Assembly: GCF_964204645.1 (NCBI RefSeq)
Contig: NC_134033.1
Coordinates: forward strand, 4,798,231-4,862,230
Direction: 5' to 3'
DNA from: Tubulanus polymorphus
Taxonomy: Eukaryota > Animalia > Nemertea
Length of the DNA: 64,000 nucleotides
In this document: piece after piece, positions 10,581-63,411 of the stretch
Layout of the letters: every line of letters starts with the position of its first letter
Numbering within the stretch: the first letter of the stretch is position 1
Made by a program: the position numbers and the translations under genes
The notes under the pieces: model-generated
What the model was told of the DNA's origin: nothing
Seen by the model: only the letters and a program-made list of their open reading frames with translations
The model's database searches: none

Positions 10581-12580
10581 CTGAAAAAGAAATATTAATT
10601 TTAGAAATAATTGTGCACTCCATTTTAATCATTTTAAGGGTGGCGCCTTTTGAGCCGGTAACTCAAAAGGATAACTGATATATGGTGTGAAAACTGAAGA
10701 TACGGTATGGCAGTAACTAACCAGAGCAAATGACCTAAGAGCTTCAGATAATAGGTGATGATTTAGACTGCGCGATGTTTCGCAATCCCACATCTAAATC
10801 GACTACCTTGCATTATTACCGAAAAGTTCATTCAAACTCGTTTAATGATAGGAATTTGGCTACAAAAAATGTTTATACTTTGTTTCTTATTTCAGTAGAG
10901 TTGACCCGGCCGGCCAGCCAATCTCCCGTGCATCATTTTTTAAATCATGATCAAACTAACACTAACAGACCCGACAGTTATAGAAATGAACTCATTACAA
11001 ATTTTATAGCAGTTTACAAAACAAAACTTACCCGATCGATTGGGAGAAACAAGGAATGAATTTATTAGGGTTTTCTGTTGCTTCACAGAAAACCCTATTG
11101 AAATTCGCGTGATTATTATTATTTTTTTCCCTTTTCCACACAGTTTTTTTAAAAGTGTAAAGGCTTCCTTACCTTACCGCTGTCGCCGATACCATCAGTA
11201 TGATATCCTTCAGCTCCCTTCAATCTCCAGATACTGCATGGGAATTTTGATAAATCCACGTTATAGGCACTGTCGAGCCGTAAACATCGGAAATTTGGCT
11301 CCGTTCAATTAGTAGCCATGTTGTGTTTTCTTTCCGAAATTTCTCTCTTCTTTATGAGGAAGAGCTATCGAATTATTCCCTCTCTTCTCCACAATCAATT
11401 TCAAAGTCAATTTTATGAATTTATTGCTCAGCGGGTCCGAGTCCAAGAGTTTACGAGTCCGGCGTTCGCGTGTCTGACAGGTTTACGGGCATTTGTTTGT
11501 TACCTCTTTAATATTTTTAATTTCTTGTTATTCCGGTTATTTCATTTAAGTATATTGCTGATCAGTTCATGTAACCAAAAGCGTCAATAAACAGATTTTG
11601 AATTGATCAAGTTTATATCAAGGTCGTTGAGTCGCGGCGGGCTGCTAGAATTACGTTCGTCTCAGAGAGAAAACAAACGACAGAAAAGTATCAGGTGATT
11701 ATCGATAGCCCACTACGGTACACACAGTTGACAAACAGTGTTAGGCCTGTGCCGGTTGGTGCGTACTGAGAATAAATATACTGGTTGGTCAGTTGGTTCG
11801 GTTGTGAAGTGTGGAAGCTAAGAAAGCCTATCCGCAGTAGGCCATCCGGTTGAAAATATCGTAAACAGCTTGGAACCATCAGAAGTAGTAAACACAAGGA
11901 TTCAGATGGTTTTCCGGGCTGCCGAATATGTGAGAAGTTGCGATTTATTTGCTTGCATATGTACATAAATTTTTTACTGTACTTTTGATAATATATACAC
12001 GTATTTGTTGTTAAGAAAAAAATATTTAAATCATTTAAGTTATTACTGTTATTGGCTACGATTATGTATGCATCTCACTATTCTACAGTCATAAGATGTT
12101 TTATAATATTTATTAGCCTACCGGTACCAGTAGGCCTATTTAGTTGTGCTGTTGTTAAGTGTTTTGACTTTAATAGACCTACATACATTCTTAGTTTTCC
12201 ATTTTATTACCTTCTTATCTAACGGTCCTCCTTTCAGGTGTGACGAATTTTAGGATCAATTTCCCAAGCCAAACATTCTTCGTGTTTGCATGATTAAACA
12301 GTCATCTCCCGTCACTTACAGTCTAGGCCAACTACCGTTTGATTTCCAACGTGACAACCATGTAGTTTGTATGACAGTTAAGATACAGTTTTGGTATCTA
12401 AAGCTTAGGTGTGAAAGATAACGGTACATCATATATCTAATCCATCAAAATCCACGTGGAAACACCGTAATCTGGCAATCTTCCAAATCATTTCCGGGTT
12501 TGACTTCTGGGCACATCTATCCATCGCATTGGGGACGCTGGGTAGCGTAAAGCCGAGGGAATATCGAAAATGAAACGCGG

Positions 12581-14725
12581 GTGTACTGTTGTAAATCTCA
12601 TTTGCCATCAGATTGTTTTTATGTTACCGACGTTAGGAAGAGAAAGGACATCGTTCAAAAGGCAGGCTTATGTTTTAATTGCCTTGGAAAGCATAGAGTG
12701 AGTAATTGTCGGTCGGAAGTTTTATGTAAGTTTTGCAAAAAACGACACCACAGTAGTTTGTGTTTTGCCGTATCCCGCATGGGGCCTGGTACCGGAAATC
12801 AGGCTGACATGAGCTTTAGTGAACCGGGTAGAATCGTATCTAATTCAGCAACTCAAACTAATTCAGTGGTTGAAGGTGGAACCTGCCAATCAAACCAAAA
12901 TATATCCTTGATAGAATTTGAAACCACAGCTGTAACCACTAATGCTAAGTTATTAGATACTGTTATGTTAAAAACTGCGGTGACGGAAGTTTCCGGTACT
13001 GATAAAACAATCATTGCTAATTTGCTTTTTGACGATGGGGCGCAACGGACGTTTATTACGTCTCAATTAGCCAAAGATTTAGGGCTTCCAATCACTAGGA
13101 AAGAGACAGTAAGCATGTCTGTTTTTGGTTCTGATAAACGTAGTGTACATCATTTGGATTTGGTTACATTGAATGTCCGTTGCAATGACAGCTGTGTAGT
13201 TGTAAAAGCATTGGTAGTACCCGAAATTACTCAGCCTATATCGGTGAATACTGCATTCAGAGATATTCCAGAATTTAAATCGCTGCAGTTTGCGGACACT
13301 GTAAATTCTGACAAGATTAATGTTCAGGTGTTAATCGGGTCGGATTTTTATTATGATTTTGTGACCGGTCATATTGTTAAGTCGTCTGTTGGTCCTGTAG
13401 CAATTAGTTCGAAATTAGGCTATTTGGTTTGTGGTCCGGTTGGTATTTTTGCTGATCGTCCTGTAGCTGTAATGAGTGTATTAACAAGCGCAGGAAAAAC
13501 GCCGGAATCAGTTGGTGATTTTTGGTCATTGGAGAACATTGGAATTATGCCAAATTCATCGTTTGATAATGATAAAGAATTTGTTACATATTATTGCACG
13601 GATTATATTGAAAAGCATGACAATACATACTACGCTAAATTGCCATGACGTGAAAATCATCCAGTTCTGCCGTCAAATTTTGACGTGATAGTGAATAGAA
13701 CGCATTCAACTATTGATAGATTAAGGAAATCTCCTGAGATGTTGGGAAAGTATTCGGACATCATTGTTGATCAGCTTTCAAAGAATTTCATCGAAAAGGT
13801 TTCCGAATCTGAATTAGATAATTCTAATGTTAAACACTACTTAGCTCATCCCCCAGTATTCAAACAGTCAGTGACGACGCCTGTGCGTATCGTATTCGAC
13901 TGTAGTTTTAGTGTAGGCGATAATCCTAGTTTAAATGACTGTTTGAATAGTGGCCCTTCGTTGTTCAATGAAATAATTCAAATACTCATGAGATTTCGCT
14001 TCGGTAAAATAGGTCTAGCTGCTGATATAGAAAAAGCTTTTCTACAGATTGGGTTACACCCTCGGGATCGTGACGTGACTAGATTTTTTTGGCCTAAAGA
14101 TCCAACCGATCCAAATTCACCCTTGGAGGTATACCGTTTTAAACGGGTTTTGTTTGGTGCGACATGCTCGCCTTTCATTTTAAACAATACAGTTTTGTTC
14201 CATTTACAGAATAATTTGAATTCTGTTACCAACGATTTGATACACAACATTTACATGGATAATGTAGTTTCCTCCGTAGATTATGAGGAACAGGCCTTGG
14301 AATATTATTCACGATCGCGAGATGTGCTCGCTGAAGGTCATTTCAATTTACGTTCCTGGTCTTCGAACTGTTCTCTATTGAGGGAACACGCTCGAAGTGA
14401 TGGCGTCTTAGAGAAGTCATTAACTGTAGACATTTTAGGTGTTACTTGGGATACAGAATCCGATTGTCTATCATTGAAATCTAGATCCATAAATACTCTA
14501 GAACCCGGTACACCTATCACGAAACGCACAGTAACGAGAGACATGAGTAAGATCTATGATCCATTAGGGTTTTTCACCCCAGTAACTGTTAAAATAAAGG
14601 TCTTTGTTCAGAGTCTTTGGAAGGATTCTTACGACTGGGACGATCCCCTGCCAGACGTTTTGTGTTCTCGGTGGAGAGAAATAGCTGGTGACCTAAGCAA
14701 TCTTCCTGAAATCTCGTTAAAATAA
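12581..14725 (+). mobile_element. Truncated BEL/Pao LTR-retrotransposon gag-pol fragment
   Basis: Zinc knuckles CFNCLGKHRVSNC and CKFCKKRHHSSLC; protease LFDDGAQRTFI; RT ADIEKAFLQI...YMDN; IYDPLGFFTPV. An in-frame TGG>TGA stop sits at 13646. No RNase H core or integrase follows. Confidence 0.93.
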
Positions 14726-16974: not shown

Positions 16975-18401
16975 TATCCTCTGTTGTTCTAAAATCTAAC
17001 CATAATGCATATTTATTGCCGGTATAATAATCAATTTGATTAATATTACAATTTTCAGATGATTTTACTTTTTCATTCATAAAATGTTTTCTAATTTCTG
17101 GCCATTGATCTATCGTTCTCATTCCTTGACAAAATATTTTATTTGCTATTCCTTCGATAGTTATTTCTACTTTTGTTATTTCAGGATTATAATACTTATC
17201 AACCTGTATTTCGCCATTAGAATATGTTGCAATGGTAAAAAATATTAATATACCTATATATTAATAGATCTTCTTGGGAAGTTAATATTCTCATTAATTA
17301 TTTCATCACTTGCATTGATAGTTACAGTTTTAAATTTGTCAATATAATCATATAATAATGAAAATCCTTGATTGTATTGAGTTTGAATTATACTTGAAAT
17401 ATTTTCATCAGTTACTGTATCATATTCTAAACATATATTCGATAATTTATAACCCATATCTTTAACAACGGTAGATAATACAATTTCATTTACAGGAGCA
17501 AATGTTATCTCAAATATAACATCTTCTTGAATTGCATATTTATATAAAGGTGCATTATTATTTATCAATTCAAAGTCTAATGGAATTTTATATTTGCTTC
17601 GATAAATATTTTTTATCAATTTATCCATAGCATTAGTTAATATTGCGCTATTAGCTTCAGATCTTAATTTATTTTGGTTTTCTGATTGGATGCCTTGAAA
17701 TATCATATTCTATTCTTTAGTTAACCATAAATCTTTATAATGCATGAATAAATTATAATCATCTCATGAGAAAACTGTTTCTGGACCAATCTTTATAGTT
17801 AATTTTTTAATCAAATATCTTCCAACGTTATCAACAACATAATTATTATTATTGCCAGTTACTTTTATATCGGCTGAGAAATAAATACTATTTCGAACAT
17901 AAAAAGTATTTTGTGTTAATCTAGGGATTCTAACATATAAAGTTTCATAAGGATTAATATTAGAAGGGTTTTGAGTAATTATATGATGTGATCTTTCTGC
18001 TTTAATAGCCTTAGATATTCTATGATTCTTAGAAGGATTGATATAACTCCCACTCATTTATTTAACAAAAAATTAATTATTTATTTTTTATCATATTCAC
18101 TAACCAAAAAATAATAACACTTACAACTGTAATTAAAAATAAAATAATATGTTCAGCAGCAAAGTTAAGAATATTCCCAGTAGATTTCAATTTAAAACCA
18201 ACAATTGATGCAATAATTCCTGGTAAAGCTGCAGCAGATTTTTTAGATAGTTCCCATAAATATTTTGCTAATTTTTTTAAACCATCCTTAACTTTATCTT
18301 GTATAGAATTATTATCATTCGGGGGTTTATCTGGTTTATTAGGATTTGGTGTAGATTTTAATGAATTTGATATTGCTAAACCAATTGTTGTGAATACCAT
18401 A
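16975..18401 (-). mobile_element. Fragment of a second copy of the same Polinton family (3' end of the coiled-coil/TM gene plus most of the major capsid gene)
   Basis: Peptides are nearly identical to those of 43112-44955 (NKPDKPPNDNNSIQDKVKDGLKKLAKYLW; YVRIPRLTQNTF; KYALWLDFRTTED). No TIRs. Confidence 0.93.
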
Positions 18402-29779: not shown

Positions 29780-32700
29780 ATGGCGGAAAGTAGACCATTT
29801 ATAAAGGTAGATAATTCTAAAATGCGTATCGGGGGTGACAAAAATACGGCGACAATAACTACAACTCTCAAAGACATCGACGGATCTGCTAAGAATCTAG
29901 GTAATTATAGAGTTTAACCATCAGAACTCGTGCTTTATTATCACTATTAGTTTTAATTTTTCATAATAAATGTAGACAATTCTGAATTGAATATCGACGG
30001 TGACAATAATACGACGACAATATCTACAGATTTCCAAGGCATCGGTACAGCTTCTGAGAATCCAGGTAATTATAGATTTCAACCAACAGGATTCATTTGT
30101 ACAGTTGTGACTTGAGTTTAGATTTATCTAAGATAATTAAGAAGCCAATAAGAAGATACGTGTCTGAAGATTCTGAAGGCAAAAATGGACCCCCTCACCT
30201 GATTGTTTTTAGGTCTTAATAGATGAAGGACCAATGGTCCAGTGGCTCTCCAAACTTTGCGAAGTAAAAATCTTTCACCATGTACGTAACGATTCATAAG
30301 GAAAAAAGAAAATTTACTCGGTTTTTGTCACCGTCAACTTCTAAAAAATGACCTTTATTAGAACAAGAATAAAATCTTCTTCGAAAGTTTGATTATTGGA
30401 ATTTGCAACAAATGTTCACAGTTTCAATGCAACCCGAGAGAGAGAGAGAATGACATAGGCCTAAAGTTGAAACAAAAATCGAATAAAAATCAACAAGTAT
30501 TATAAATAAGAAATTGAACAATTCAACTAGCTTAAATCTAGTGTACTTTAGCAACATTCAGTTAAATATTAGTTGTAATGGTAGAATCAGAGTTGCCTGA
30601 AAACACAAAATTCCCATTACTATTGTAAATGGTAGTTTGTGTGTTTTGGGCGATTTGAAGTGGTTCTAATGGTATCTGTTAAAATGATCCATCGAACGGA
30701 TGGCTTATTGAAATATTTGGGGGTCTTAGGTTTCATATATAATTGTAACACATATGACCCCCTAAACATGAGACCCAAAAGGTCTTAGGTCTTATGTTTA
30801 GTGAAATCCGGGAGGAAAATTTGCAATTGTTTTTCTTTTCGTATACCCAAGATATGCCGAAATTTTATACAATGCTGACTTTTTGTTGAATCTCATTGTC
30901 ATTTGGTTGCTGGTTTGATCATGGTTACAACGTTACAGTAACGTTAACTCGGATAATGTCCAGTCGGTACAACAGCCTGACTACTTCTGATTACAAATGG
31001 TTTAATAGAATTTCGTCGATGATTGTTTCCCAGGAACAAAGCTGCCACCAATAGGTATATTTTGGGATATTGAAAATTGTCAAGTACCAAAAGGGAAGTC
31101 GGCGTTTGACGTGGCTAACCGTATTCGAGACAAATATTGCGCTGGATCCAGCCTCGTCGAGTTTGTCTGTGTTTGTGATACCAGCAAAGAAAATCGCGAA
31201 GTTGAATATGAACTTGGTGAAGCTCAGGTAAATATCTGCATTACCTCTCAAATAAGGAAAAATCTCACTCAACTTGAATAAAGACTAAAATAACTTCCAT
31301 CCGAGTTTCTGGTAGTTTTTAGTTCACTTATTGACCGTCATCCATCCGTCCATATATGGAATGAAATTATTCTGGGAAGGTTCAAAGACTATTCAATATT
31401 TCGTCTTGATATTTGGTTTGTACATGAATCTACCCCTAGACACGTCTGTAGCCGAAACATGGACTGATCAGAATCATGATCGATAGCCATTGGTATGGTC
31501 GTCACAGAGTAGCGACCGTAAAGCCCTCATTTTGTTAGAATGATAAGTCATTTGTTAGCACGGTTTGTTTTCCATGTAAAACAAAGTTCAAATGTCCGGA
31601 TTAGAGGTTGCAATTAGCACAGATCAAATTTAGAATTTCTCAATTTTAGACAATTAGACAATTTCTTAAACATCATCCATATAAAGTCTTGTGGGACATT
31701 GAAATTCATCGCAGAGCTTTAATTTCTTATCTCTAATACAAGATAGCACACAAAGCTCATTTAGTCTCATCTGACTTGCATTGTTCTCTTTCCGTGGCTC
31801 CAAGTCGGTGCATATATTTCTTTCGCCCATTTAGCGGTCTGCTGGGTGTTTTTGGGCACCAGTAATTGTAAAAGTGGGGTTTCAGATCAGAGGTCGAGAG
31901 GTCGAGACACCACTCATCACCACAAGTAATTTTTTTTCCTTATAAATGGGGGAGAATGAACACCAACCAGAAAATAATAATGTTAATGAAAATCAATATC
32001 ATTGTCCATATTGTAAAAAATACATCGATAAATCCCAAAAATCACGACATGAAAAATCTGCAAATCATATAAAAAATGTAATAGATTTTGAAACTCCAGA
32101 AAATTCCAATGAAAGAAAAGAACGATTAGAAAATACGAATGTGGATGAAATAAAATGTGAAGTTTGTAATGAATTTATAATAAAAAGGAATTATAATAGA
32201 CATCTCGAATCACAAAAACATTATTGAAATTTAAATAAAAATGTTTTAGGATCAGAATATTTTGATAATAAACCTCAACAAGTAAAAAAAAATCAACTTC
32301 AAAAACTAAATCCATTTCAAATAAACCTTACATGGAAAATGTTAGAAATTATATTGATTCACTAGAAATAAAAGATACAATTGAAATTTTAGAAACATTA
32401 CATAGTAAAATTGGTCCTGCAGCTATTCTATTTAGATTTTTTAAAGGTACAACAATAGAAGATTATAGTAAATTTAATGAAATAATAGAAAAAATACTAG
32501 ATTTGATAACAGATGTTGAATATCCAAAAATTAGTATCTCTGGGAAAGTAAGTTTTATAATGTCAGAAGAAAATATGAATTATAATATTCAAACACTCTC
32601 TGAAGAAATAATTTCAAAAACACAAATAAAAGAGAAGTTAGAAAAAATATTAAATGAATTTAAACGTCATATTGAAGAAAGATATTTTGAGGGTTCTGGC

Positions 32701-35700
32701 TTAACGTTGAATGAAATAATATATTTAGATTTAAATGTTTATAATACAAAAAGAAATAAAACATCAAAAAGTAATAAAATGTTTAAAAATGATTCAAACT
32801 TTACAACAGAAAAGGATATTAAAGCATCATCTTATATTAAATTACCATTTATAACAAAAGCAGTAATAAATATTCAAAATGAAGATAATAAATGTTTTCT
32901 ATGGTCAGTTATTAGTTGCTTACATCCATCACAGGAAAATGTTTGTAGAATAACAGATTATCGGAAATATGAAACATTATATAAAATTGATCAATATCCA
33001 GTAACTATAAAAATGATTCCTAAAATAGAAAAAGTTAATAATTTAAAAATAAATGTATTCGAATTAATGCAATTACCAAAGACAAAAGGTGAAAATATTA
33101 AAGATTATACATTGGAAGCTTTATATTTAACAGAATATTATGATGATGAAAATGCTATAGATTTGTTATATTATAAAAAAGATGAAAATGAACATTATAT
33201 GTGGTTAAAACAAATTGATTTATTCTTTAGAACAACAGAAAGTGATCACCATAATAAAATGTATCTATGTAGAAAATGTTTATCTAAATTTATAACTGAG
33301 AATGCGTTACTAAAACATAAAGAATTATGTGATAATAAAGATTTTTGTAAATTAATAATGCCAACAGAACAAGATTATAAATTGAAATTTACTAATCATA
33401 AATTTAAGAATATTGTTCCTTTTGTAATTTATGGGGATTTTGAATCATTGAATAAAGAATTAACTAATCAAGATAGAAAAGAAATATATAACAAAAAGCA
33501 ATTATTAAAATCAATGGATAAAGGAAATGAATTAAATGAAGACACAATGCTGCTTATGGAATTTATATAAAATCAAATTATCCTGAATTATATGAAAGTC
33601 AATATATTTCTTTTAGAGGTGAAAATATAGTTAATGATTTTGGTGATAAAATGATTGAATTAGAAAGTGATTTTGCAAAATTATTAAACAAAAATAAAAG
33701 AATAGTTATGACAAAAGAAGATGAAATTGATTTTAATTATGCAACTCATTGTTGTTATTGTGAAAAACGTTTTTATTCATTTGATAAAAGAGTTTGAGAT
33801 CATGATCATTTGAATTCAAAATATCGTGGAGCTGCTCATGAAGATTGCAATTTACAAGCTAAAAAAGTAAATTTTGTACCAATATTATTTCATAATTTAT
33901 CAGGATATGATACCCATCTATTTATAAAACAATTATTGGGAAAATTGGGCGCAATTATCAAGAAATAGAAGAATATAATGCTATGAATGAAGCAAATGTA
34001 AGAAAATATGATTTTAAACTATTAGCTAAAACATCTGAAAATTATATTTCATTTCAATTTGGTTGCATTAGATTTTTAGATTCTTATAGATTTCTAGCAA
34101 GTTCATTAGATAATTTATCAAAAAATTTAGTTGATAATGATTTTGATCTCGATATTATTATCCAAATGAACAAGATTTTAAATTATTGAGATATAAAGGC
34201 GCAATTCCTTATTCATTTTATAAAACACACAATGATTTTAATGTAACAGAATTATTAAAAGATCAATTTTATGATCAATTAAAAGAGGATTATGTGAAAG
34301 ACGAAGTTTTTAATAGAACATTAAATATTTGGAACCATTTTAAGATGAAAAATCATGTTGAATTAGTTGATTTATATTTAAAATCAGATGTTATGATATT
34401 GGCTGACATATTTGAAAAATTTAGAGAAGTTAATTTGAATCATTTTAATGTTGATCCTTGTTATTGCTACTCTAGTCCTGGTTTAACCTGGCAATGTGGT
34501 TTAAAATATACAAATGTAGAATTAGATTTATTAAAAGAACCAGATATGGTTTTATTATTTGAAAAATCAATTAGGTGGAATTAGTGGTGTTATGGGAGAT
34601 AGATATTTTAAAGCAAATGATGAATATAAATCATTATATATTGACGCCAATAATTTATATGGTTGGGCAATGATGCAACCTCAACCATATAAAAATTTTA
34701 TATTAACAGAAGTTGAAAATGGTGATAAAACTGATTGGGAAAGCGCAATTGCGAGTTTAAAAGATGAAGCACCAATTGGTTATTTCTTTGTAGTTGATTT
34801 AGAATATCCTGAAAATATAAAGTTTAAACAAGAAACTTACCTTATTGCCCAGAACATTTAACTGTAGATGATAGTTATTTAAGTGAATACCAGAAGAAAA
34901 TAAAACCGAAAGATCATGTTTTTACAGAAAAATTAATACTTACTCAAAATAATAAATACAATTATATTGTTCATCATAGAATGTTAAAATTTTATCTAAA
35001 ACAAGGAATGAAATTAAAGAAAGTACATAGATATATTGAATTTAATCAATCGAAGTGGTTAGAAAAATATATAGATTTCAATACTCAACAGAGAACCATA
35101 TCAAAACAGATTTTGAAAAAGATTTCTTCAAATTGATGAATAATAGTTTTTATGGTAAAACATGTGAAAATATTAGAAATAGAAATGATATTGAATTAGT
35201 AAATAATTCTGAAAGATTAAGACATTTACAATTAAGTCCTAGACATTTAGGAAATAAAAGATTTGAAGATTATTTAACAGCAGTTAAATTAAAAAGAACA
35301 TCAATGAAATTTAATAAACCTATATTTATTGGTTCGACTGTTTTAGAAGTATCAAAATTATTAATGTATGATTTTTATTATAATGTTTTACAACCACTTT
35401 TTGGGGAAAAGCATATTGAAATATTATATTTTGATTCTGTAACAGCTGACACCCCAATATTATTAAAATGTAATAATAAAATATTGATAAGAAGAATTTC
35501 AGAAATAATTCCAAAACAAAATGAATGTTATATTTCATATGGAGAAAAAGAATTAATACAAATAAATGGTTTAATGGATGTTTGGACAAGAAATGGATGG
35601 AAAAAATTAAAGAATATTATTAGGCATAAAACAAATAAGAAAATCTATAGAGTTAGAACTAAATTAGGATTTGTAGATGTTACAGAAGATCATAGTTTAA

Positions 35701-38700
35701 TTAAACGAAATGGTGATGAAATAAAACCAACTGATATAAAAATTGGAGATGAATTATTACATAAAAGATTTTTCCAAAGAATGAATCATATGTTATTTGA
35801 TGAAATTATTGATGATATTTATAATATAGAACCCGAAACATTAGAAGAAAAGAATATTTTATCAAAGGATTTTTCATGGGAGATGGTTCAGCAGGTGTGT
35901 ATAATTATGTTAATCGCACTCAATATCGTTGGTATTTATGCAATCAAGATTTGAAATTATTAGAAAGAATAAGGAAATTCTGCGAAGAAGTTTATTCATA
36001 TAAAACATTGAGAATCATGGATCATATGAAATCATCCGCGGTTTATAGAATATTTGTAAATAATCCTAAAGATTTTGCTACAAAATATAATGATGAATTC
36101 TATATTCATGCAATAGTGAAAAGTAATACTTCAACAAAAGAAAAGATAGTTCCAGATTATGTATTGAATGCAAAAAATAATTTAAGAAAGTGGTTCTTCA
36201 TTGGATTCTATGCCGCAGATGGTTTAAAAAGTTTCCAAAACCGCAAAACATATCCTTTGCTCAAAAAGGAAAAGTTGCTATATCAGGATTGAATATATTA
36301 TGCAGTTCATTAGGATTTAATATGAATATAGAATTAATTAAATCTAAACCAAATTGTTTTAATTTAAGGCATGTAGAAAAAGAATTAACAGAAGAAGTTA
36401 AAGATTTATTTGAAATATATAACCCAACTGACTATGTTTATGATTTATCAACAGATGATGGAACATTCAATTCTGGGTTCCCATTAATCCAAAAAAAATA
36501 CCGACAGTTACATACTAAAAATCAAGACAAATGACATAACAAAAGACTTAAAAACATTAAAACATCATTTTGATTTTAGCAATTATCCCAAAGATCATGA
36601 ACTATTTAGCAATGATAATAAAAAGATCCCTGGTAAGTTTAAAGATGAATTAGGGGGTGATGAAATGATTGAATTTGTTGGGATAAGAAGTAAAATGTAT
36701 AGTTACAGAACAAAAGATCATGAAGCTAAAAAGTTAAAAGGAATAACAAAACATGTGGTTGATAAACATATAGAATTTCAAGATTATATAAAGTGTTTAT
36801 ATAAATCAATTGTAATGAAACACAAAATGTTTAAGATCAGAAGATCATGAGATGTACATTAATGAAGTTGAAAAAACTAGTTTAAATCCATTTGATGATA
36901 AAAGGCATAGATTATGGTATAAAAACATTACCTTATGGTCATTAAAACATAAAATCAATATCATCATAATCGAAATCACTATTGGTTTCTTCATTTTCAT
37001 TTAATTGTTTAGGTTCTTCTTCCATTCCATTTTTTTCATTTAAATAAAGTTCTATCTTGTTCCACATTTCATCTCGCTCTCTTTGTTTCTTTTTGTTTGT
37101 TAATTCGTCAAATGGAATTATAATATCTAGGTTTAAATGATTTACAATCTTATTTAAAAAGAATTCATAATTTATTGAATCTGTTATTCTATTTTCCAAA
37201 TGATACATTAATATTTGTTTGAATATTTTTTTTTATATTTTCCGTATCTTCTTCTGTTAATTTAGGTTTTTCATAATAATCGTTAAATAATAAATATAAA
37301 TACATTTTCTTTTGTTTTGTGTTAAATGTTGACGGAATAATTGTATTTATAATATCTTTTTTAGTTATTTCACCATTTTTATTTTCTATTATTTTCATTT
37401 TTTCAAGCCATTGCATATATTCTGGTGTATGATCTTCTATAGAAAATATTTTAGAAATTTCATCTAGATAATTTAATTTTGGTTCTATGAGAAAATCTCT
37501 AGTTTTTTCTTCACCCCATAAATTCCTTTGCCATCCACAATCAACACAAAATAACACAGTACCTTCTTGTCTTAAGGTCGCATAAATACATTGCGGGCAT
37601 TTTTGTTTATAATTTATTGGTAATAGATCTTCATTAAGCTCTTGGTATTTTCTTACGTTTTCTTTATGTTTTATTGTTCTATTATGTAGATTTGAATTAC
37701 TTGTTGTAATAATCAATTTACAATATTTACAATAATATGTTTTTCTTGTTAATTCATTATATTGTTTTTCTAACTTTTCAACTGTTTCTTTATTATCTGG
37801 TAACGTTTTCTCATATTCTATTTTTTCTAATAAATTATCTTTTCTTTCATTGAATTCAGTTTCAAATTTATTAGAAATTTTATCTTTATGTACTTTACGA
37901 AATTGATGATTCTCCCAATCTTCTATATTTTATTCGACAAGGCTCGCAGATATGATCTTTTATATTATCCTTGTCATAGAATAAGAAAGGTCTTTTCCAA
38001 ATAATTTCAGGTTCAACTTCAACAGAATTACTATTACTTTCGTTACTATCAACATTAGACGTTGCGCCATTAATTCTACACTTCTCTGAATGTTTTTTAA
38101 CATAATTTCTTGAGAATAATTTATTACATTTTGGGCAGTTTATTTTAGGGGGTTTATAATTTTCATCATGTTTTTTCATATGTCGAGCCATATTACTTTT
38201 TCTTAGAAGTTCACCACAAATTTCGCATGCTATCTTCTCATCCATTTATTTAGGAAAAATTTTATTAAAATTAATTTTTAGTGATGAGCGGTAATTTTTT
38301 TATGTTATAAATAATGGTAGAATTAAAAGAATACAGAATATTTGTTGATTCTAGAAGACTTACAAATTATAAATCTCATAATTTACTAGTTCAATTAGAT
38401 AGAGAATTTAAGAATTGTGTTGATTTAAAATTAGTAAATATAAGTTTATGTAACTCATTTTACAATATATCAGATAAAACTGATGAACATAGAAGCCTTC
38501 TTATTTTTGATAAACTTGAAAAAAAATGGATTCAACTTATGCTTACACCAGGATTATATAATTTAGAAACATTAGCGCAAGAAATTAATAGAAAAGCTCG
38601 GATTAGATTAGGTAATGGTAATTCCAAATTTAATATTAAATTCATAAAAAGTGAGAGCTCTAATAAAATTAAAATAAAGTTTGATGATGAACTTATTAAA

Positions 38701-41700
38701 CTTGTTAAATCTGATACATTGATGACAAGAAGACATACTTACACGGTAAAAAAACCTTTTGCAAAACTGTTAGGAATTACTCCAAATGATTTTATTGGTG
38801 TAAACATACACGGTAACTCAAATATAATACCTTTTACACACTTTTATATTTATTGCAATTTAATCGATCCTACAAAAACATTTGAAGCAACTAAAGATAC
38901 AACATGTAATTCTAGTATATTAAATATTTTACCATTGAAGAACGTTAAACAATTTGGAACGCAAATAAATTATAATTTAGCTGAATGTGATTTTAAACCT
39001 TGTATTCCTTAATTTAACAATTTTAAATTAGAAATAAGAAATCATAATGGTTATTTAATTGATTTGAATAACTTTCCTGTAATTTATGAATTAGTTATAA
39101 GATGTAAAGAGTAATTTTTTCACTATATAAATGAATATAACTGTTGGACCGAGTATATGTTTTGGGTTTGATTTTAAACGTGAGAAAGAAATGAAATTTA
39201 ACATTAATGATGTAATTACACATATTAAAAATATTGCATTTTCTAATGAAACAACATTTGAGTATAAAACAACAATAGATAAAGAAACTTTAAATGTAGA
39301 AAAGATTACTAATTTAATTAGAGAATCTTTAAGATTTTATGAATTAGATGAAGATTTTATCATCGATGATATTAGAAAAATAATAATTGAAATATATACA
39401 AATGAAACTAGTAATAAAATAAATGTTGAATTAATCATCACTAAAATAACTAAATATTTTGAAGATAGTAATTTTTTTGATAAATAAATGAGTGATAATA
39501 AGTGGATAATAACTGGATTATATAATGGCGCCTTACTATCAGTTGGAACTGTTGGTTATTCAATGGTATTAAAAAAAGTATTCAAAATGGGAAGTGTTAA
39601 TGTTGATAGATTTGATATAAATGATATTTTAAAGTTAACATTAGCAATTACTTTATCTAATTCAACTATTGATTATTTGGAAAAACAAAAATATATTCCT
39701 CCCATATAAATGCATAATTTTTTTGCTAAATAAGTGGCTTCTGCAATTATAACTATTATAGGATCGGCAATTGTTAACGCTTTAGCATTTACTGGTGGTG
39801 GTTATTTATTTAAACATATTGATAAAAATAGTTCATCAGGAGAACAAAGAGGACATAACTTAGCATTAGAGAAATATAATAAAGCTGCAGAAGAATATAG
39901 AGAAAAAAGACCAAAACTATATGGATTACATCAATAAAGAATTATATGATCAGAAGATTTCACATAGAGATTTTCAATCAGTTGATGATGCAATGAGTTT
40001 ATATAACGCGGTAACCAATAAAGAAAAATTACATCTATACAAACCTAAATTATCAGATTATTATACCCCAAGTAATGAACAGAAGAAATATGAAATAATT
40101 TGGATTTTAGGTGGAACTGTTGTTGTTATATTTGTAGCATATAAGTTTACTAATTAGTAATTTTTTTTGCTAAATAAATGGAAGATAATGTTGATAATAT
40201 TGATATTATTCTTCATGATATAAATAAAACTAAATTAGAAATATATTTAGAAAAACAAATATTAGAATTTGAAAGTGACTTTTAAAAGTTAAAAAGAAAA
40301 AATATCTAAAAAGTAAAATTATATATTATTTGATTATAAGTGGTTCGGTTACAATTAGTTCTGTAATAACATTTTTAGCAATATTCAGCCCATTAACCCC
40401 TTTAGCTATATCAATTGGTGTGTTAGGATTAAGTTCAAGTGTTTTAACTGGTATAAGTTCAAAATTGAATATTAAAAGTAATAAAGAAAAAATTAAAACT
40501 AATATAAAAGAAATTAATAAATTAAAGAATACACTAGATTATATAATAAGTTTAAATGGCCATATAACAGTTGAAGAACAAGATAAATTATTAAAAGAAT
40601 TAATAAATTATTAATTTTTTAATTATATAAATGGGGTTTCCAAAAGCTTTCCAATATAATAAATCAATTAAATATAATATTCCTGCAATAGATTTTAAGA
40701 AAAATATTACATATAGAAATGTAGTTTTAAATTCATTAACTAATTTAGAAATTTATGTTACTGAATCACAGTTTTTTATTTCTAAAATGGAAAATATATT
40801 TAATACATATGAAGTTACTTTTACTCGAGATGAATACCATATATATAAAGTAAAATCTAATATGAAATATTGGCAGAACCAATTAGATTTTGCTGTTTAT
40901 TCTGCAACAACAGGATGTGGAATAAGTTGGAATGATCATTTAAATAACTTAGATAAAAATTTGAAGTATTCTGATTTAAAATTAATTCACACAATATTTA
41001 GATTTCACACATATTTTCAAATCAGAATAATATTAAATGAATTAGAATGTCCTTTACCCGGGTCTAAATATTTTAAAGAATTGGATAATAATATTAATAT
41101 ATCTAAGTTTTATAAAATATGTAATGAATTTAATATAAATATTAATTCCGATTTCAGAGCGCATGGTATATTGCAAGGTGTTGGTGAAGAGTTTGAAATA
41201 AAAAGAATTGATTATATGCATAGAATTTCAGCTTATCATAATTATAAAGATGATAATAATAATGGTTGGGTTAATTTCATTTTAGAAAATGGTGAAGGTT
41301 TTACAAAATCAGGTATACGAAGAATAAATCAATCTATTAGAATTTATTTGATATGCATTTTAGGCGCTCAAGTTGAAGCAAGATCCCCAATAATTGGAAA
41401 TGATAACACTTCATTCGATGCGCAGAAACAGTTTAAAGTTTTATTTGAAGATTCAATTCATAATGATAAAAATAGATCGATTCCAGAAAACATTATAAGA
41501 TATCAAAATTATTTAGATAAATCACATATTACATTAAATTATTGTATATGCCCTAATCTTTTAATTATTTCTAATGATTTAGAATTAAAGATGGGAAACA
41601 TAACTGGTTATAATAATCTAATTAAAACTGCTACAATAAATAATTCATTTGGGTTAAATGATATAAATAAAAAGATTATCACTGCTCCAAAATTAATGGA

Positions 41701-44700
41701 AGGTGAAAAAAATAAAAAACATATTCAATCAACAGAAACTAAAACTAAGAATATTAAATTGGATAATGATTCCAAAATAAAAGATTACAATACTACAGAA
41801 AATGGTGCCGTACGGCACCCACATGGTGATATTAAAACTGATAATGGTGCCGTATGGCACCCACACGGTGTTATTCAACATAATATAATTAAAACTGATA
41901 ATGACAATAAATCCCATGAAAATACTAAATTAGCTATAACTTGTATAGGAATTGTTATAGGAGGAATATTATATTTTAAATTTTAATTTTTTTATTATAT
42001 AAATGGATGTAGAAGGTGGAGAAGATATTGGAATGGATCCTTTTGATGAACCTGGTATAAGTGATGAACAACCACCTGATTTTGATGAAACAAGTTTTAA
42101 TGATGGTAATGAGCCAGAATATAATAATAATTTGAATATACCTGATTATATTAGAAATGCAGAATCACAATGAAATCCTGAAAATTTAGACCCAGATTTA
42201 GTAAAACAAGATTTAGATAATTTAAACAAAATACCTAAATTAGAACGTATAATTGAAAAGTCTAAACTTAACATAAATGATGAAGACGTTGGACTTTTAG
42301 CAGATCAATTAAAATTTTTAGATAATGGTAAATGTTATTATCGTTTGAAAGGTGATTATTATATTGATATCACTTATAAAAATAATAAAAATAAAATATT
42401 ATCAGAATCAACTTTAGAAAAATTAAAACCAGATAGAATTAAAATAATAAGTAATAGTAATGAAATAACTGATGTTACACAAAAAGAAATAGATGATAAT
42501 ATAGATGTATTTAAACAAATAATTAATGAATTATTTGAAATAATCAAAAAGAAATCAGAAACAGAAACAACTTCTGAACAGAATATAACTTCCAAAAATA
42601 GTAAACTTAAATCAAATAAAGTTCCAATTGAAAAACTTTTACCGAATGGATTAATTGATGCAACAGATCAAGAATTAGAAGATTTAGATATATTTTCTGA
42701 TAAAGCAATTAGAGAAATTATTAGTATAAGACTTGCATCTAATAAAATTGCGCATGATAAAAGTATAAGAGATTTTAAAATTAGAACTTTAGAAAAAGAA
42801 TTAACTGATAAAAATAAAGAAATAGAACAATTAAAGTCTGATTTAGATCATCAAGTAATTGATGAAATAGAATATAGGCAAAAAGAATTACGTTTAGAAA
42901 AAGAAAAAGATGATTTAGAATATAACATAGAATTACAAAAAGAAGAAATTAAATTATTGTTAAAATCATATGATTATAATATTAATAGATTAAAAGTTAT
43001 TTTTAAAGATTTGTTGATTAAACCAAATTCTGAAATATCATTAAAAGATAGAATAAAGTTATTATTTAAATTAGAAGGAATAACAATTCTTTCAATTCTA
43101 ACAGCTGTAACTATGTTATTTACAACAATTGGTTTAGCAATATCAAATGCTTTGAAATCTACTCCTACTCCCAATAAACCGGATAAACCCCCGAATGATA
43201 ATAATTCTATACAAGATAAAGTTAAGGATGGTTTAAAGAAACTAGCAAAATATTTATGGGAACTATCTAAAAAATCTGCTGCAGCATTGCCAGGAGTTAT
43301 TGCATCAATTGTTGGTTTTATATTGAAATCTGCTGGGAATATTCTTAACTTTGCTGCTGAACATATTATTTTATTTTTAATTACAGTTGTAAGTGCTATT
43401 ATTTTTGGTTTAGTAAACATGATCAAAAATAAATAATTAATTTTTTTTGTTAAATAAATGAGTGGGAGTTATATAAGTCCTTCTAAGATTTCTAGAATAT
43501 CTAATGCTATTAAAGCATAAAGATCACATCATATAATTACTCATAACCCTTCAAATATTAATCCCGATGAAACTTTATATGTTAGAATTCCTAGATTAAC
43601 ACAAAATACTTTTTATGTTCCAAACAGTATTTATTTATCAGCCGATATAAAAGTAACTGGTCATGATAATAATTATGTTGTCGATAATGTTGGGAGATAT
43701 TTGATTAAAAAATTAATTATAAAGATTGGTCCAGAAACAGTTTTCTCATTAGATGATTATAATTTATTTATGCATTATAAAGATTTATGGTTAACTAAAG
43801 AAAATAGAAATAATATGATATTTCAAGGTATCCAATCAGAAAACCAAAATAAATTAAGATCTGAAGCCAATAATGCAGTAGTAACTAATGCTGTAGATAA
43901 TTTGATAAAAAAGATTTATGGAAGCAAATATAAAATTCCATTAGACTTTGAATTGATAAATGATAATGCACCTTTATATAAATATGCAATTCAAGAAGAT
44001 TTTAGCAGATCAATTAAAATTTTTAGATAATGGTAAATGTTATTATCGTTTGAAAGGTGATTATTATATTGATATCACTTATAAAAATAATAAAAATAAA
44101 ATATTATCAGAATCAACTTTAGAAAAATTAAAACCAGATAGAATTAAAATAATAAGTAATAGTAATGAAATAACTGATGTTACACAAAAAGAAATAGATG
44201 ATAATATAGTTCTTTTTATGTTCCAAACAGTATTTATTTATCAGCCGATATAAAAGTAACTGGTCATGATAATAATTATGTTGTCGATAATGTTGGGAGA
44301 TATTTGATTAAAAAATTAATTATAAAGATTGGTCCATGATAATGCACCTTTCCATTAGACTTTGAATTGATAAATGATAATGCACCTTTATATAAATATG
44401 CAATTCAAGAAGATATTATATTTGAGATAACATTTGCTCCTGTAAATGAAATTGTATTATCTAGCGTTGTTAAAGATATGAGTAATAAATTATCGAATAT
44501 ATGTTTAAAATATAACACAGTAACTAATGAAAATATTGCTAGCACAATTCAAACTCAATACAATCAAGGATTTTCATTATTATATGATTATATTGATAAA
44601 TTTAAAACTGTAACTATTAATGCAAATGATGAAATAATTAATGAGAATATTAACTTCCCAAGAAGATCTATTAAAGGTATATTAATATGTTTTACTATTG

Positions 44701-47700
44701 CAACATATTCTAATGGCGCAATAAAGGTAGATAATCATTATAATCCTGAAATAACAAAAGTTGAAATAACTATCGAAGGAATAGCAAATAAAATATTTTG
44801 TCAAGGAATGAGAATGATTGAAGAATGGCCAGAAATTAGAAAACATTTTATGAATGAAAAAGTAAAATCATTTGAAAATTGTAATATTAATCAAATTGAT
44901 TATTATACCGGTAATAAATATGCGTTATGGTTAGATTTTAGAACAACAGAGGATAATTCATTACATGGTTCTGGGAAAAAACTACAGAACACTAAATATG
45001 GAATACAATTATTCATGGCGAAGAAAAGAGGGGACAAAAATTTCAAAATGCATATTTATATTATATCTGACGCACAATTAAATATTGTAAATTCACAATT
45101 AGATAGTATTCAATATTAGAAATATAAAGTTAAAATTAAGGATATATAAATGGGCGGTAAAAAAACTCCTAATACTAAAGAACAATATTTAAGAAACTTA
45201 TTATTACAACCCTGAGAGTTCGGTTGCTTATTCTTCTACTAAAAATATATGGCGTAAAGTAAAACAAGATAAATTAGATAAGATAATCCCACAAAATTTA
45301 GTTAAATATAAAGATATAAATGAATTGAATGGAGCTTCCCACTTTATAGAAAAGATGCTGTACAAACATCAAATGTTTTAAGAAAATTTCTTTCGGGTGA
45401 TAAACTAAAACCAGAAAAAATACAAATACAATTTGATGATGGAAAAGAGTTTGATAATTCACTTGTTCATGAACTCTTAGATAATCATAATATTAAATAT
45501 TTTTCAACAAAATCAGATAAAAAGCAGCAGTTGTTGAACGATTTAATAGAACATTAAGAACAAGAATGTGGAAATATTTTACAGCAAATAATACTTTTAA
45601 ATGGATTGATGTTTTACCAAAATTGACAGAAGGATATAATAATTCTTATCATTCTTCTATTGGAATGAAACCTATTGATGCTAGAAAACCTGAAAATGCT
45701 GAAATTGTTTGGAATAATTTATATGGAGCATTTCTTGTAGATGATTTTGGTGAACCTAAATTTAAAGTTGGTCGAAATGTTAGAATTTCTAAGTATAAAA
45801 AGATATTTGATAATGGATACGATCGAAATTTTACTAGAGAAATATATGAAATAAAAAAGGTAATAACAACAAAACCATATGTCTATAAATTAGAAGATTT
45901 AGATGGTGAAGAAGTTGATGGCTACTTTTACGAAGAAGAATTAAGTTTAACTACTGAAAATCTATAACAAGAATATAAAATTGAAAAAGTATTAAAAACA
46001 AAAACTATTAAAAGAAAAAAATATTCTTTAGTAAAATGGGTTGGATGGCCAGATAAATTCAATGAATGGATATTATCAAGTGAAATTAAAAATATATAAA
46101 TGAATAAAGAATTATTTATATTTGAGCCTCATAATATTTTAATATCTGGCGTAACAAATTGTGGAAAAACTTATTTTATATTCAATTTATTAGAAACTGT
46201 TTATGAAAACTATTTTGATAATATAGTATTATTTTGCCCAACGTATGAATTTAATCAAACTTATGATAGAAACTTTACTAGAAATAATAAATTTATTATA
46301 TTAGATCCTAAAACAGTAAAAGAAAATTTAGATAATTGTATAAAAAAAGCAATTGATATTTATAAAGGATCAAATATATTATTTATCATAGATGATTGCG
46401 CAAATTTACATGATTCAAAAGTTAGAGAAAGTGAGTTATGCTATTTAGCTTTTTCTGGCAGACATTTTGGGATAACAACATGGGTTTTAAATCAAAAATA
46501 TAATTCAATTGTTAAAGACTTTAGAGAAAACATTAGATTTCTAGTTTTATTCTACAATAAAGATAGAAAATCAATGAAAAATGCACTTGAGGAAAATGAT
46601 ATTATTCCACATGATTTACATAATGAATATATGGATAAGTTGAAAAATATTAAAAGATCAAAATTACTATTTAGATTACAACACCCATTTAAATATGAAT
46701 TTATTTAAATTCAATTAGTTTGTTAATCAATTACATATTTAGTTACATTCTAGTTGAATTCTAGTTATTGGTAGTTGTAACAAAAATCAACTAGATTTTA
46801 ACAATATTGTAACTAGCTTGTTAATCTAGTTTAATTCTAGTTACATTCTAGTTGAATTCTAGTTATTGGTAGTTGGAACAAAAATCAACTAGATTTAACA
46901 AGAAATAAACAAAAATAACAATATTTCAACTAGCTTGTTAATCTAGTTGAATTCTAGTTACATTCTAGTTGAATTCTAGTTGCAACATCACAACTAATTT
47001 TTTTGTTATATAAATGGTAGGTGAAAAGAAAATAAAATCTAAAAATGGTGATGTTCCAATTGAAAAAACTTTAGATGATTTAGGAATAAAAGAAACAAAA
47101 TTAATTCCAGATGATGGTGTTTTAAATAATGTTACAACAAATAATAATTATGAATATTATCTTTACTGTAAACATCAATTAGAAATATTAATAGCATCTG
47201 GAAATTGTAAAAATTTTGTCGGTAAAAATTTAACTTATAATGAATTAGATACAATGAAATCAGATGAAATTATTAGATTATTTAAGATTCATGAAGCCGC
47301 GAGAACAGCTAGAATTAATGACGCGATATCAGAAAATGTAGTAAAAGGTTATAATAAATTATGTAATTATATACTACCAATTGAAGATGAAAATAGATTA
47401 TATTCCGATTTAAAAAATGATTATTTAGTTATGACTGAATTAAATAAATTGGATTGGATATTTATCATTTCAATTAGGTGGATTCATGACATTATTATCA
47501 ACTGGGGTTATAACATTTTCAAATATTGAAAGTAAAAATATTTCTATAATAAATGAGCGAGGTGGAAGAAGTGAAGAAAAAACCGAGATCACGGAAACAA
47601 ATTGAATGGTCTCGGCAATTAGGAATTAAATCACAAGAATATAAAAAAGCTGTAAAAGAAAAAATAAGTAATAAAAATGTAAATAAAAATAGTGAAAATA

Positions 47701-50700
47701 TTGTTATTTCTAATCCTTCTAATGATAGAATATTTGATAAATGTCTATATTTTACAGTTGGATTTGTAATTGTATTCATTTTGATTGGGTGTAATTGGTA
47801 TAAGAAATCAAATAAAATTCATGATATTAATAATTCTGAAACAACTGCTATCAAAAATGAAAATGCTTCTGAAATTCCAAAATTGACAATAAAAAAATGG
47901 ATTAATATTTTAGAAAAAAGCAAAAAAAATAATTGAATATCTCACTACTTTTGTCTATCTATGCGGAGCAATTAAATTGTCCAGATAAGTCATTTCGGAT
48001 TCTAGATATTCATTATTTTTATTAATTTATTTTGTTTTTACTTGAATATTGTATTACAGTCGTTTCTTATTATTAGTTTTTTCTTAAATTGAAAGATGGC
48101 AGCACTGGGTGTGATGCTAAAATGAATATTTGAATTTGAATTTGTTAATCAATTAACATAGTAATTGATTACTAATTTGATTAAAAATTATATCATAATT
48201 AAGTCAAAAATCCATAATTCATTTATCGGTTTTCATTCTTATATTCTTTTCATTCGGAATAATTTATAATTTCAAATTTCACATATTTTTTTAGCACCAG
48301 CAACATTTACTTAGGTGTTTTAGCTAAGTATATAAGGCAATTCATTCAACCAGTGGAGTAGCTCTGGCCAGCAGAGGCATTTTGAAAATGCACCTTCGTC
48401 CACTCTCCGGGTTTCTCCTTCGGTTTCGAATTTCGAGATTGGTAGAAATTACATTAGGTGCCTTTAATATAATGTGATTTCTACCAATCATTGAAGGAGA
48501 TCTCGGTTGACGTGGGTCGCCGGGAGTGTAAGTAGAAATGACGGGGGATAAGCGTCCCTTGGCGCCTTTCAATAACGGGATGCTTATCCCCTGAAAACTC
48601 TATAGGTAGAGGATAGGGCAATTTTGCTAAAACTTACCGTAAAAACATTGAAATATTCCTTTTAATCACGAGAGAATGATGACTATCCTCCTGTCGTCAC
48701 GGCCGAGCTAATTTAAATAAACCTCGCTTTCAGCAACCAATGAAAACGTGGTAGTTCAATGCCGGCTAACTGGCTTGTGTGTGTTGTATGTACTGCGTGC
48801 TTATTATAAAACTGCTAGCTATCCAATATAACAACAACGTTGTGCAACACCTGTTTGATTGATCAATATTCAAATGAAGCACTCTCATATAATAACATGT
48901 AACAGATGTTTGACTGTATGATTGTAGTTGTTTATAAAACGACTAAGGTCATTTTGGATTCTAGATATTCATTATTTTTATTTTTATTTAATCAACAATT
49001 TCTAAATCATGATGACCATCTTCATTTTTCCCATGATATATTATTTTAAATCCTACTAAATCTTTCAATTCCTCTGTACTCAATGAAACCCATTTATCGG
49101 GTAAAAACACTTTAAATTCTCGTGATGTACTAACATTACAGTAGCTTAAATTAGCTGATACTTTCTCTCCATATTTAGTTTTTATCTTTTCTAATTTCAA
49201 TATTTTATGTTCAATTTCTTTTGTAACATCAACTAACTTTTTTATTTCAAATTGTTTTTTTGTTGGTTTAATTCTGTTATTTATTGTTGCTAAGAATGCT
49301 TTTCTATCTTCCATTTATAAGGAAAACAAATTACTTGTGGTGATGAGTGGGGATTACTTCCCCTGTATATAACAAACACGCTTTTAACCGTTCTCACCCA
49401 AGCCTCACGGCATCTATTTATCCGGGTACATTTAACACACGCGCAGCTGTTGTTACGCGCACTCACTGTTTATGTGTGTCACAATTCTACTGCGTAATAT
49501 TTCTAAAATTTCAATTGTATCTTTTATTTCTAGTGAATCAATATAATTTCTAACATTTTCCATGTAAGGTTTATTTGATCTATCAATGTATTTTTTACAA
49601 TATGGACAATGATATTGATTTTCATTAACATTATTATTTTCTGGTTGGTGTTCATTCTCCCCCATTTATAAGGAAAAAAAATTACTTGTGGTGATGAGTG
49701 GTGTCTCGACCTCTCGACCTCTGATCTGAAACCCCACTTTTACAATTACTGGCACCCAAGTACTTATTCTCCATCAAATATCCACAAGGCGACATGGCTA
49801 GTATTGATAAACGCCGCGTAAACGCTGTATAAAGTAGAGTGGTATCAGTGAATTATACGGGATGGTCACTTTTCAAACTGTGTGAGATTAGTAGGTTATT
49901 GCACGTCACACATTCACTACCATTAAATATGATAATTATTTTCAGGTAAAAATTCTTCATGTTAGCGCTACTAGTAAGAACGCAGCCGATAACAAATTGG
50001 TTCAACTGTTACGGGATTTTGGTGAAAATCATTCCCAGCCTGGTACTGTTCTTCTTATCTCAGGTAAAACTACAAATAATATGCACCCCAGTAAAATATG
50101 CTACCGACCTCCACCGTTGAACATATTCAAGCCTATGACTGGCGAATTTATCACCAGCGAATTATTTACTCGGTGATTTGAATTGCTTTTCGTCCAATTT
50201 TAGAAAAATTCGCCCTAGTCTGTCACAGGTTTAACTTCTGAAATTGTGGTGCTATATTTGTTTAGGTGATGGTATTTTCAAGCAGGTTTTGTCGGATCTG
50301 AAATATCGCTGTGGTTTTAAAACTGTCGTGTTACATAATAAGACCGTGTCGAAAGAATTGTTAGCGTTTGCTGATGATCACTGCGTGTTCAGTGAACTAT
50401 TCGATGATTTACCTGAAAGACAACCCAAGGTAAGTTACAGCTGTTTCAGTTGGGTCCGCCGGACTGTTAGAGCTTGTGGGAATACTGTCATAACATTCAC
50501 GTATAAGGGTGGTTTATTTCACAGAAATCGTCAAGCAGCCCAGTTGAATTACTGGTTACAAATTTACCGACTCGACCGCCTGATGCAACGCCCGATAAAC
50601 ATGCCCATAACTTACGAAAGCGTTTGAATCAATTATTTGATAACCGCGGTGGTAAAGTCAAGAATTTGGATCCCGACAAATGTTCAGCTATCATGACGCT

Positions 50701-62252: not shown

Positions 62253-62342
62253 ATATACATACAAGCATTCATAGAATGTGTGCATTTTACGTGACGCATT
62301 GGTAGGTGTTCCATTTCATAGATTACAGGTTTCTCTCTCACG

Positions 62343-63411
62343 ATGAATTTCAGTTCGCAGACGACTTCACTACTCTTTACAACTACTAGAAATCCCTGCT
62401 CACCTTACTTATTCCAAAACGTATTGTCAATCAGCGTAAAACTAGCTGGAGGTTTTCCTATCAGTATCGTCGGAATAATTTTGAATAGTTTCAGCATTGT
62501 GATTTTACGTCGCCAAACTTCAAATCACATATGGCTCTACATTCTGCGATGTCTGGCAGTGGCTGACATAATCTTTCTTACATTTCACATAATTCAAGAG
62601 CCTTTTCGTTTCATTGTCTCCGGTTTGACCCAGGGTAGTCATATGTTCGTGATTCCTACGAGTATGAGTTGGGGTATTCGGCCATGGATCTATCGGGTAG
62701 CTTGGTTACCGAGAAACTCAGCGCAAGTGACAAGGAACTGGATAACTGTACTACTAGTTTTAGAAAGGTCTTTTTCTATCGCTAGGCCATTCTTCGCTAG
62801 AACTCATTTCACAATACCAAGGGTAAGAATTGTAGTTTGTTGTTTCTATATTATTTTTGGTATCTTAGGCTCTCCATTGATTATCGGTACTACAGTAGGT
62901 ATCTGGTTTTATGACGAATGTAATAAAGTCGTCATGAAATCCATCCGCCTGAGCAAGCGATCCCATACGAAGATACTTTCTCATTGAAATATTTACGTCG
63001 ATTGATCACTTTCCTAGTCCTTTGTATAAAGAAATCCTACCTGCTTTATTGCTAATAATTTTCAACAGCCATCTGATATGGACTCTGAAAAAGATTAGTT
63101 CCAGGAGAAAAGAAATGACACACGAAGGCGAACAAAGGCTAGACGTGAAAGCTATCAGGATAGCTGTACCTATTGTTATTTTGTTTGTCGTCTGCGAAAT
63201 CCCTGCTTCGTTCCGATCTTATAACAGTTTCATCGGTCGCTTCGTCAAAATGCCACCTATTAAATACTCTCACACCATCTATACCCTTCAAGAACTGTTT
63301 ACCGATCTTTTACCGACCTTGAACTCGTCTGTAAATTTCTTTATCTATTACATAGCAAACGATAATTTTAGAGGAACTGCAATAAAATTGTTGAGAAGGC
63401 GGCCAATTTAA
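62343..63411 (+). pseudogene. Single-exon FMRFamide-receptor-like GPCR with one frameshift (about 62940-63020)
   Basis: TM1 GIILNSFS, TM2 LAVAD and TM3 RNWITVLLVLER; in a second frame, TM6 FVVCEIP and TM7 LNSSVNFFIYY..NDNFR. Confidence 0.85.

Follow-up and report, generated by a model that had tools for sequence, protein, structure and literature searches.

A passage of PMC11131425 names the replication strategy of animal Polintons as a key unknown. How these elements are transcribed, with or without a helper virus, is considered here for a 64,000-nucleotide stretch of the nemertean Tubulanus polymorphus (NC_134033.1, positions 4,798,231 to 4,862,230; hereafter the window, meaning this whole stretch). 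It holds a Polinton (Maverick) in which nearly every gene starts at the motif TAAATG, and in which a broken minus-strand gene resembles VLTF3, a late transcription factor of poxviruses and giant viruses (Table 1). Our preferred reading, to which we give a probability of about 0.5, is that this is a helper-transcribed Polinton; intact copies of its VLTF3-like gene would encode a TFIIB-like initiation factor, an optional aid for the RNA polymerase of a co-infecting large DNA virus. The element is taken as probably helper-read because nearly all of its genes start at a motif in the style of poxvirus late promoters.

The TAAATG starts claimed in the preliminary description of the locus are upheld, the start codon being preceded by TAA at 15 of 16 starts of the element. 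A T-rich stretch spans -13 to -7, with T at -11 in 14/14 starts and at -10 in 12/14. In its strict form, composed of TAA, a T-run, a spacer and TAAATG, the motif has 10 copies in the window where chance predicts 0.02, and every copy lies at a polinton gene start. Among the giant-virus VLTF3 genes of a comparison set, only 8/71 start with TAA-ATG. With the initiator fused to the ATG throughout, the arrangement suits a cytoplasmic polymerase of poxvirus type but does not suit the TATA geometry of RNA polymerase II (Pol II). We infer that the T-run and TAAATG form a promoter read by a viral polymerase, because the element contains no RNA polymerase gene and such an ATG-fused initiator fits poxvirus late transcription. 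The helper need not be a poxvirus. Vaccinia late promoters, as summarised in a passage of PMC11980589, place TAAAT(G) over the start codon with a conserved T at -10, and the element starts have the same layout, TAAATG overlapping the ATG with a T-rich element upstream that includes T at about -10. The element differs from the poxvirus scheme in that the motif stands on all genes, including replication genes, that an extra TAA precedes the T-run, and that no early-type class was seen. Literature and term searches, with subscription papers and supplements outside their scope, found no report of TAAATG or poxvirus late promoters in polintons.

The motif was followed in 80 related metagenomic loci retrieved with the ATPase, and start-motif classes were scored on the 37 loci with at least three scored starts. 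TAA-ATG stands at 121/124 starts in 25 loci (21 clusters) and at 1/56 starts in 9 loci (5 clusters); 3 further loci are intermediate. The classes track clades of an ATPase tree (63 rows, with an unresolved backbone; it omits 18 loci that lacked a long ATPase match or a scored start). Three classes are arranged along this tree. The first, of 25 loci, has TAAATG with T at -11; the second has a start-proximal TATA (L155, L157/158, L175, L188); the third shows no evident motif (L199-L202, GC 52-54%). Accessory ORFs (open reading frames) that are specific to clades and encode matrin/BED-like fingers or an HNH-like domain (L138:3171-4001, L140:3695-4918, L140:1299-1811) have TAAATG starts and lie beside the ATPase.

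These counts bear on the view that TAAATG merely provides a context for translation starts, or results from AT richness and stop-start coupling, and that the VLTF3-like gene is unrelated passive cargo. The 23% GC of the element and the uncoupling of gene and motif across relatives, described below, agree with this view. Against it, the motif persists across 20-40% GC in related loci; even where GC reaches 34-40% it is present, as it is where starts diverge and where a gene is the first. Of 92 starts from 20 distant loci, 91% have the upstream T at -11, and nine related loci have the motif at 1/56 starts. Stop-start coupling as its source was ruled out, as TAA ends an upstream gene in only 2/14 starts. 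This view is very improbable.

The VLTF3-like gene is read from three minus-strand frames between 38245 and 36942, which the preliminary description had joined into one protein of about 430 residues. These frames are one broken gene, because an intact homolog, P0122, aligns across all three in order. P0122 (697 aa, E 4e-19) came from a HMMER search in which the tail of piece 2 was compared with 1.84 billion proteins; the other of the two matches, P0123, was a repeat artefact and was dropped. In tblastn against the window, P0122 is colinear at 30-48% identity: frame -1 matches its residues 10-89 and 127-221, frame -2 its residues 227-477 and frame -3 its residues 454-546. This rules out a joining of unrelated ORFs by sequencing noise. 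With X placed at both breaks, the three-piece read-through comprises 433 residues and shares its fingers, ribbon and tail with P0122 (43% identity). The first break lies near 37925-37933, where it had been expected (about 37932). The second had been put at 37205, which is wrong: the true site is a run of nine A about 25 nt upstream, and the third frame matches both P0122 and giant-virus VLTF3 already from 37232 on.

Sequencing reads from the same species (run X5) differ in length from the window at 37226 in 134/214 cases, and 32 diverge at 37931, so that the two breaks are shown to be peculiar to this copy or to a minority of family copies. The element is a multi-copy family, represented by 4180 reads from about 12% of the run, most of them 90-99% alike. 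Programmed frameshifting was ruled out, since homologs are uninterrupted and most reads differ at the second break. Either mutation of this copy or faulty assembly may have produced the breaks; decay is favoured by the numerous stops in other genes, with a stop or frame change in 7/13 genes compared with the relative L136 and the polymerase in many pieces. The gene being broken, this copy supplies no factor itself, and the earlier suggestion that the element provides its own factor does not hold for it.

The read-through carries four zinc fingers, as first counted. They are not all of C2H2 type, as had been stated: one is a classical C2H2 finger (Pfam zf-C2H2, 4e-5), one is C2HC, one is CxxC..H..H (cut by the first break in the window, whole in P0122) and one is of U1/matrin type (zf-U1, 2e-7). 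This U1/matrin-type finger is similar to those with which the element's own polymerase begins (E 3e-5, pairwise), so that the fingers look like a module shuffled within this polinton clade. The CxxC-x13-CxxC ribbon and the C-terminal motif are present as described.

The C-terminal ~190 residues were shown by profile comparison to be a divergent VLTF3, homologous from the ribbon to the C-terminus, which upholds the kinship first proposed. Piece 3 matches Pfam PF04947 (Pox_VLTF3) at 24.2 bits (E 3e-5), just under the curated cut-off of 25 bits; neither P0122 nor the read-through with X matches this family. When the 1035 ORFs of the window were compared with a profile of giant-virus VLTF3, piece 3 ranked first (E 3e-5, followed by 0.19), and its 21.9 bits exceed those of 2000/2000 shuffles (best 16.7). 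The hhalign comparison with VLTF3 gives a probability of 93.5 and a pairwise E of 2.3e-7 over 180 columns, a level reached by 0/1000 shuffles, and aligns the two ribbons. The gene has the C-terminal F...NYxYxLxK...DxxWxKI motif with its spacing, while the ribbon-to-NY-motif distance is 142 (158-166 in VLTF3) and the ribbon loop 13 (14-15). The first half of the helical domain is strongly diverged, being 16 residues shorter and lacking the conserved His. The VLTF3-like region had no match in word-index searches of proteins, and no relatives were found in viral contigs, genome contigs or phage records. A motif scan for polinton-type VLTF3 gave 15 loci, of which 4 were ordinary giant-virus VLTF3 genes and 11 were chance hits.

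The region is predicted to fold as a zinc ribbon followed by one cyclin-like helical repeat. The top Foldseek matches of the model are VLTF3 models from poxviruses, entomopoxviruses and giant viruses, and the input alignment of the model contained VLTF3 rows; no significant match was found in the PDB, and single-sequence folding reached a predicted local distance difference test (pLDDT) score of 37. The expected likeness to cyclin/TFIIB-like folds appears in the predicted model at modest scores, and the VLTF3 profile matches the TFIIB ribbon 1pft (E 0.004). TFIIB and cyclin-box proteins would share with this VLTF3-like protein a B-ribbon-like zinc ribbon followed by a cyclin-like repeat. A literature search found no paper joining VLTF3 with TFIIB and a zinc ribbon.

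This predicted resemblance to TFIIB could also suit a nuclear factor that acts as an adaptor for host Pol II without any helper, with TAAATG as an element-specific core promoter or initiator. Mriyaviruses, whose replication is probably nuclear, retain VLTF3 although they have no RNA polymerase; the element is an integrating one with a chromodomain; polintovirus genes are expressed in corals, according to a passage of PMC11131425; and many element starts read TATATAAATG or TAAATAAATG, with a TATA-like word inside. However, the position of the T-run agrees with the poxvirus late promoter, and a TATA box touching the ATG would, as generally known, place the Pol II start inside the coding sequence. 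The TAAATG elements in which VLTF3 was not detected (L160/L162) would moreover be left without their adaptor. We regard a Pol II adaptor as a rather unlikely explanation.

If VLTF3 and TAAATG formed one system, they would be expected together across polinton families, as was originally proposed. They do occur together in the window element, in L136, which is syntenic with it, has TAAATG at 13/14 starts and breaks off after 143 codons of the P0122/P0125 gene, counted from its start, and in L181, where a VLTF3-like tail is present. The VLTF3-like gene of L136 adjoins a deoxynucleoside kinase gene with a TAAATG start (L136:10343-10981, minus strand; Pfam dNK, E 2e-31). Strict coupling nevertheless fails, because VLTF3 occurs without TAAATG in L188 (61 bits; 1/6 starts), L155 (E 4e-5; 0/7) and L157/L158 (E 7e-4; 0/6), and TAAATG occurs without detected VLTF3 in L160/L162 (9/9 and 8/8 starts). 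In the latter, VLTF3 was not detected in ~12.5 kb from the polymerase start to the non-coding end; no clear pair of terminal inverted repeats (TIRs) is visible and the elements are possibly incomplete. Neither feature is present in L199-L202, and most other loci are too short to judge. Factor and motif do not always occur together in related elements. A looser link survives on small numbers: where an element has VLTF3 but not TAAATG, most of its starts follow a TATA word at a distance of 4-25 nt (L155 5/7, L157 5/6, L188 6/6; background 8-19%), as compared with 1/7 in L200 and 0/7 in L202.

The relatives also differ in the form of the gene. A polinton with an intact 1394-aa polymerase (L188) encodes a compact 213-aa VLTF3 with a ribbon (L188:5749-6387, minus strand; the Pfam match at 61 bits). 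No BLASTP match was found between this protein and the zinc-finger-fused form, and polintons may therefore have gained VLTF3 more than once. L155:5082-5576 and L157:6543-7049 are ribbon-less VLTF3-like genes of 165-169 aa that keep the NFLSY motif. Such patchy presence and ribbon-less forms would suit an accessory conflict gene, in which a diverged VLTF3 would bind the machinery for late transcription of the helper and redirect or block it; the element would gain, or the host would be protected, much as happens with endogenous virophages. The divergence of the first half of the helical domain and the multi-copy state of the family in the host agree with such a decoy. Yet the gene shares its late-type motif with the capsid genes, and ribbon and C-terminal motif are both kept; a decoy role is distinctly unlikely.

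Under the helper-factor reading, intact gene copies would make a TFIIB-like initiation factor that helps the RNA polymerase of the co-infecting virus to read element genes, biasing initiation towards the element. We infer that this factor acts at the TAAATG motif, where the zinc fingers would add nucleic-acid binding. VLTF3 would then be an optional aid and not the sole determinant of the start motif. More broadly, and on balance doubtfully, a large branch of animal Polintons could be integrated satellites of poxvirus-like cytoplasmic viruses, with a poxvirus late promoter on every gene and, in some lineages, a zinc-finger-armed VLTF3 that pulls the helper polymerase onto the element. If so, animal Polintons would have a virophage-like life cycle together with a sequence tag that predicts the helper. 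The clade-wide TAAATG/T-run signature is a more valuable lead than the VLTF3 gene, which is a known accessory, since it makes the helper question testable; the promoter classes among related Polintons could point to different helpers.

The element itself is identified as a Polinton because it has TIRs (~197 bp, 95% alike) with a 6-bp target-site duplication, a protein-primed DNA polymerase (DNA_pol_B_2, E 7e-6), an A32-like ATPase, a capsid protein and an integrase-like gene; the last was named from motifs, chromodomain and position only. Among the element ORFs scanned, no Peptidase_C5 match was found, so that the adenovirus-like cysteine protease characteristic of Group 1 Maverick-Polintons is missing from this set, and no protease-type ORF is present among the unassigned ones of L136. 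The intein that had been proposed in the polymerase is supported by weak Pfam matches below the cut-off (Intein_splicing, E 0.0012; LAGLIDADG_3, E 0.0008). It has no tblastn match among the 80 related loci, few of which include the polymerase; a passage of PMC11161782 regards homing-endonuclease insertions in polinton polymerases as likely intein invasions.

Table 1. Features of the Polinton and of its VLTF3-like gene (window positions).
Feature	Position	Strand	Remarks
Polinton (Maverick)	31861..49750	.	17,890 bp; ~23% GC over genes; low-GC island
Strict start-motif copies (nine) at element gene starts	31927..49684	.	TAAATG at 15/16 starts
VLTF3-like gene, broken	36942..38245	-	four zinc fingers, zinc ribbon, VLTF3-like helical domain, acidic tail
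Piece 1	37895..38245	-	116 aa; C2H2 and C2HC fingers, first half of finger 3
Piece 2	37189..37929	-	246 aa; second half of finger 3, U1/matrin-type finger, CxxC-x13-CxxC ribbon, most of helical domain
Piece 3	36942..37232	-	96 aa; VLTF3 C-terminal motif (PF04947 positions 102-164 of 168), acidic tail
Break 1	about 37923..37933	-	frame change inside finger 3
Break 2	37226..37234	-	frame change in A9 run
Divergent intergenic region	38243..38316	.	T-run and TAAATG start of VLTF3-like gene (-); start of neighbouring gene (+), motif shifted
Protein-primed DNA polymerase B	31946..36850	+	many pieces; N-terminal U1-type zinc fingers
Putative intein	35436..36499	+	LAGLIDADG-like domain; broken by frame changes; splits polymerase YxD-TDS motif; Pfam and flanking motifs
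Probable minor capsid protein	38314..39108	+	named from position and size, no family match; one internal stop
Major capsid protein	43458..45119	+	broken, partly duplicated; Pfam Capsid_N, E 0.005
Integrase-like gene with chromodomain	45150..46096	+	broken; name inferred from sequence motifs and position
A32-like packaging ATPase	46100..46708	+	intact; Pfam Pox_A32, E 2e-11

Several further structures lie in and around the element. A fragment of a second copy, covering the capsid region at 92-94% identity, occupies 16975-18401 (minus strand) without the internal duplication of 43936-44349. A broken SLATT-like two-transmembrane gene at 40178-40614 (Pfam, E 0.003) is conserved in TAAATG relatives. 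An array of 11-bp repeats separates the ATPase from the next gene (46701-46992), and host-like DNA at 48000-48990 may be an insertion. At the right end (49311-49750), a promoter block that is repeated there drives an ORF of 108 aa (49314-48991), and part of the polymerase 5' end is present as an inverted copy. The flanks contain remains of a BEL/Pao retrotransposon (12551-14725) and a single-exon Srw-type seven-transmembrane receptor gene in two frames (62322-63411), which suggest an animal host.

The closest known counterpart of the gene is VLTF3 of the Nucleocytoviricota (poxvirus A2; PF04947 with the A2L zinc ribbon PF08792), with which it shares the ribbon and a helical domain ending NYxYxLxK...DxxWxKI, colinear over the 180 aligned columns. 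It differs in four extra N-terminal zinc fingers, a kind that the polymerase of this clade has as well, a distance from ribbon to NY motif ~16 residues shorter, 16-25% identity and an acidic tail, and in lying, as a broken copy, in a polinton without RNA polymerase. VLTF3 is still called confined to the Nucleocytoviricota in PMC11253617, but a passage of PMC11131425 (Stephens et al. 2024, crediting Krupovic and Koonin 2016) places it in a polintovirus subgroup, and it appears in figure legends of PMC8502044 (Starrett et al. 2021; non-animal midsize eukaryotic linear dsDNA, MELD, viruses), 10.64898/2026.06.19.733378 and 10.1101/2025.10.09.676808. VLTF3 in polintons is therefore already known, and the gene is not the new third link to large DNA viruses that it was first thought to be. 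Its zinc-finger-fused form was not found in print by literature and term searches with supplements outside their scope. As in those reports on polintoviruses and polinton-like viruses (PLVs), VLTF3 here is a patchy accessory gene; the passages concerned give no architecture, promoter link or function, whereas the window form is zinc-finger-fused. The main text of the entomopoxvirus PLV paper (PMC11296320) has no match for promoter, TAAAT or VLTF. Endogenous virophages (mavirus and endogenous mavirus-like elements, EMALEs) and entomopoxvirus-associated PLVs resemble the window element in that they are integrated, code for capsids, lack an RNA polymerase and show either promoters of helper type or an association with poxviruses (passages of 10.1101/2025.10.09.676808 and PMC11296320). 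The window element differs from both in its capsid lineage and in its residence in an animal germline.
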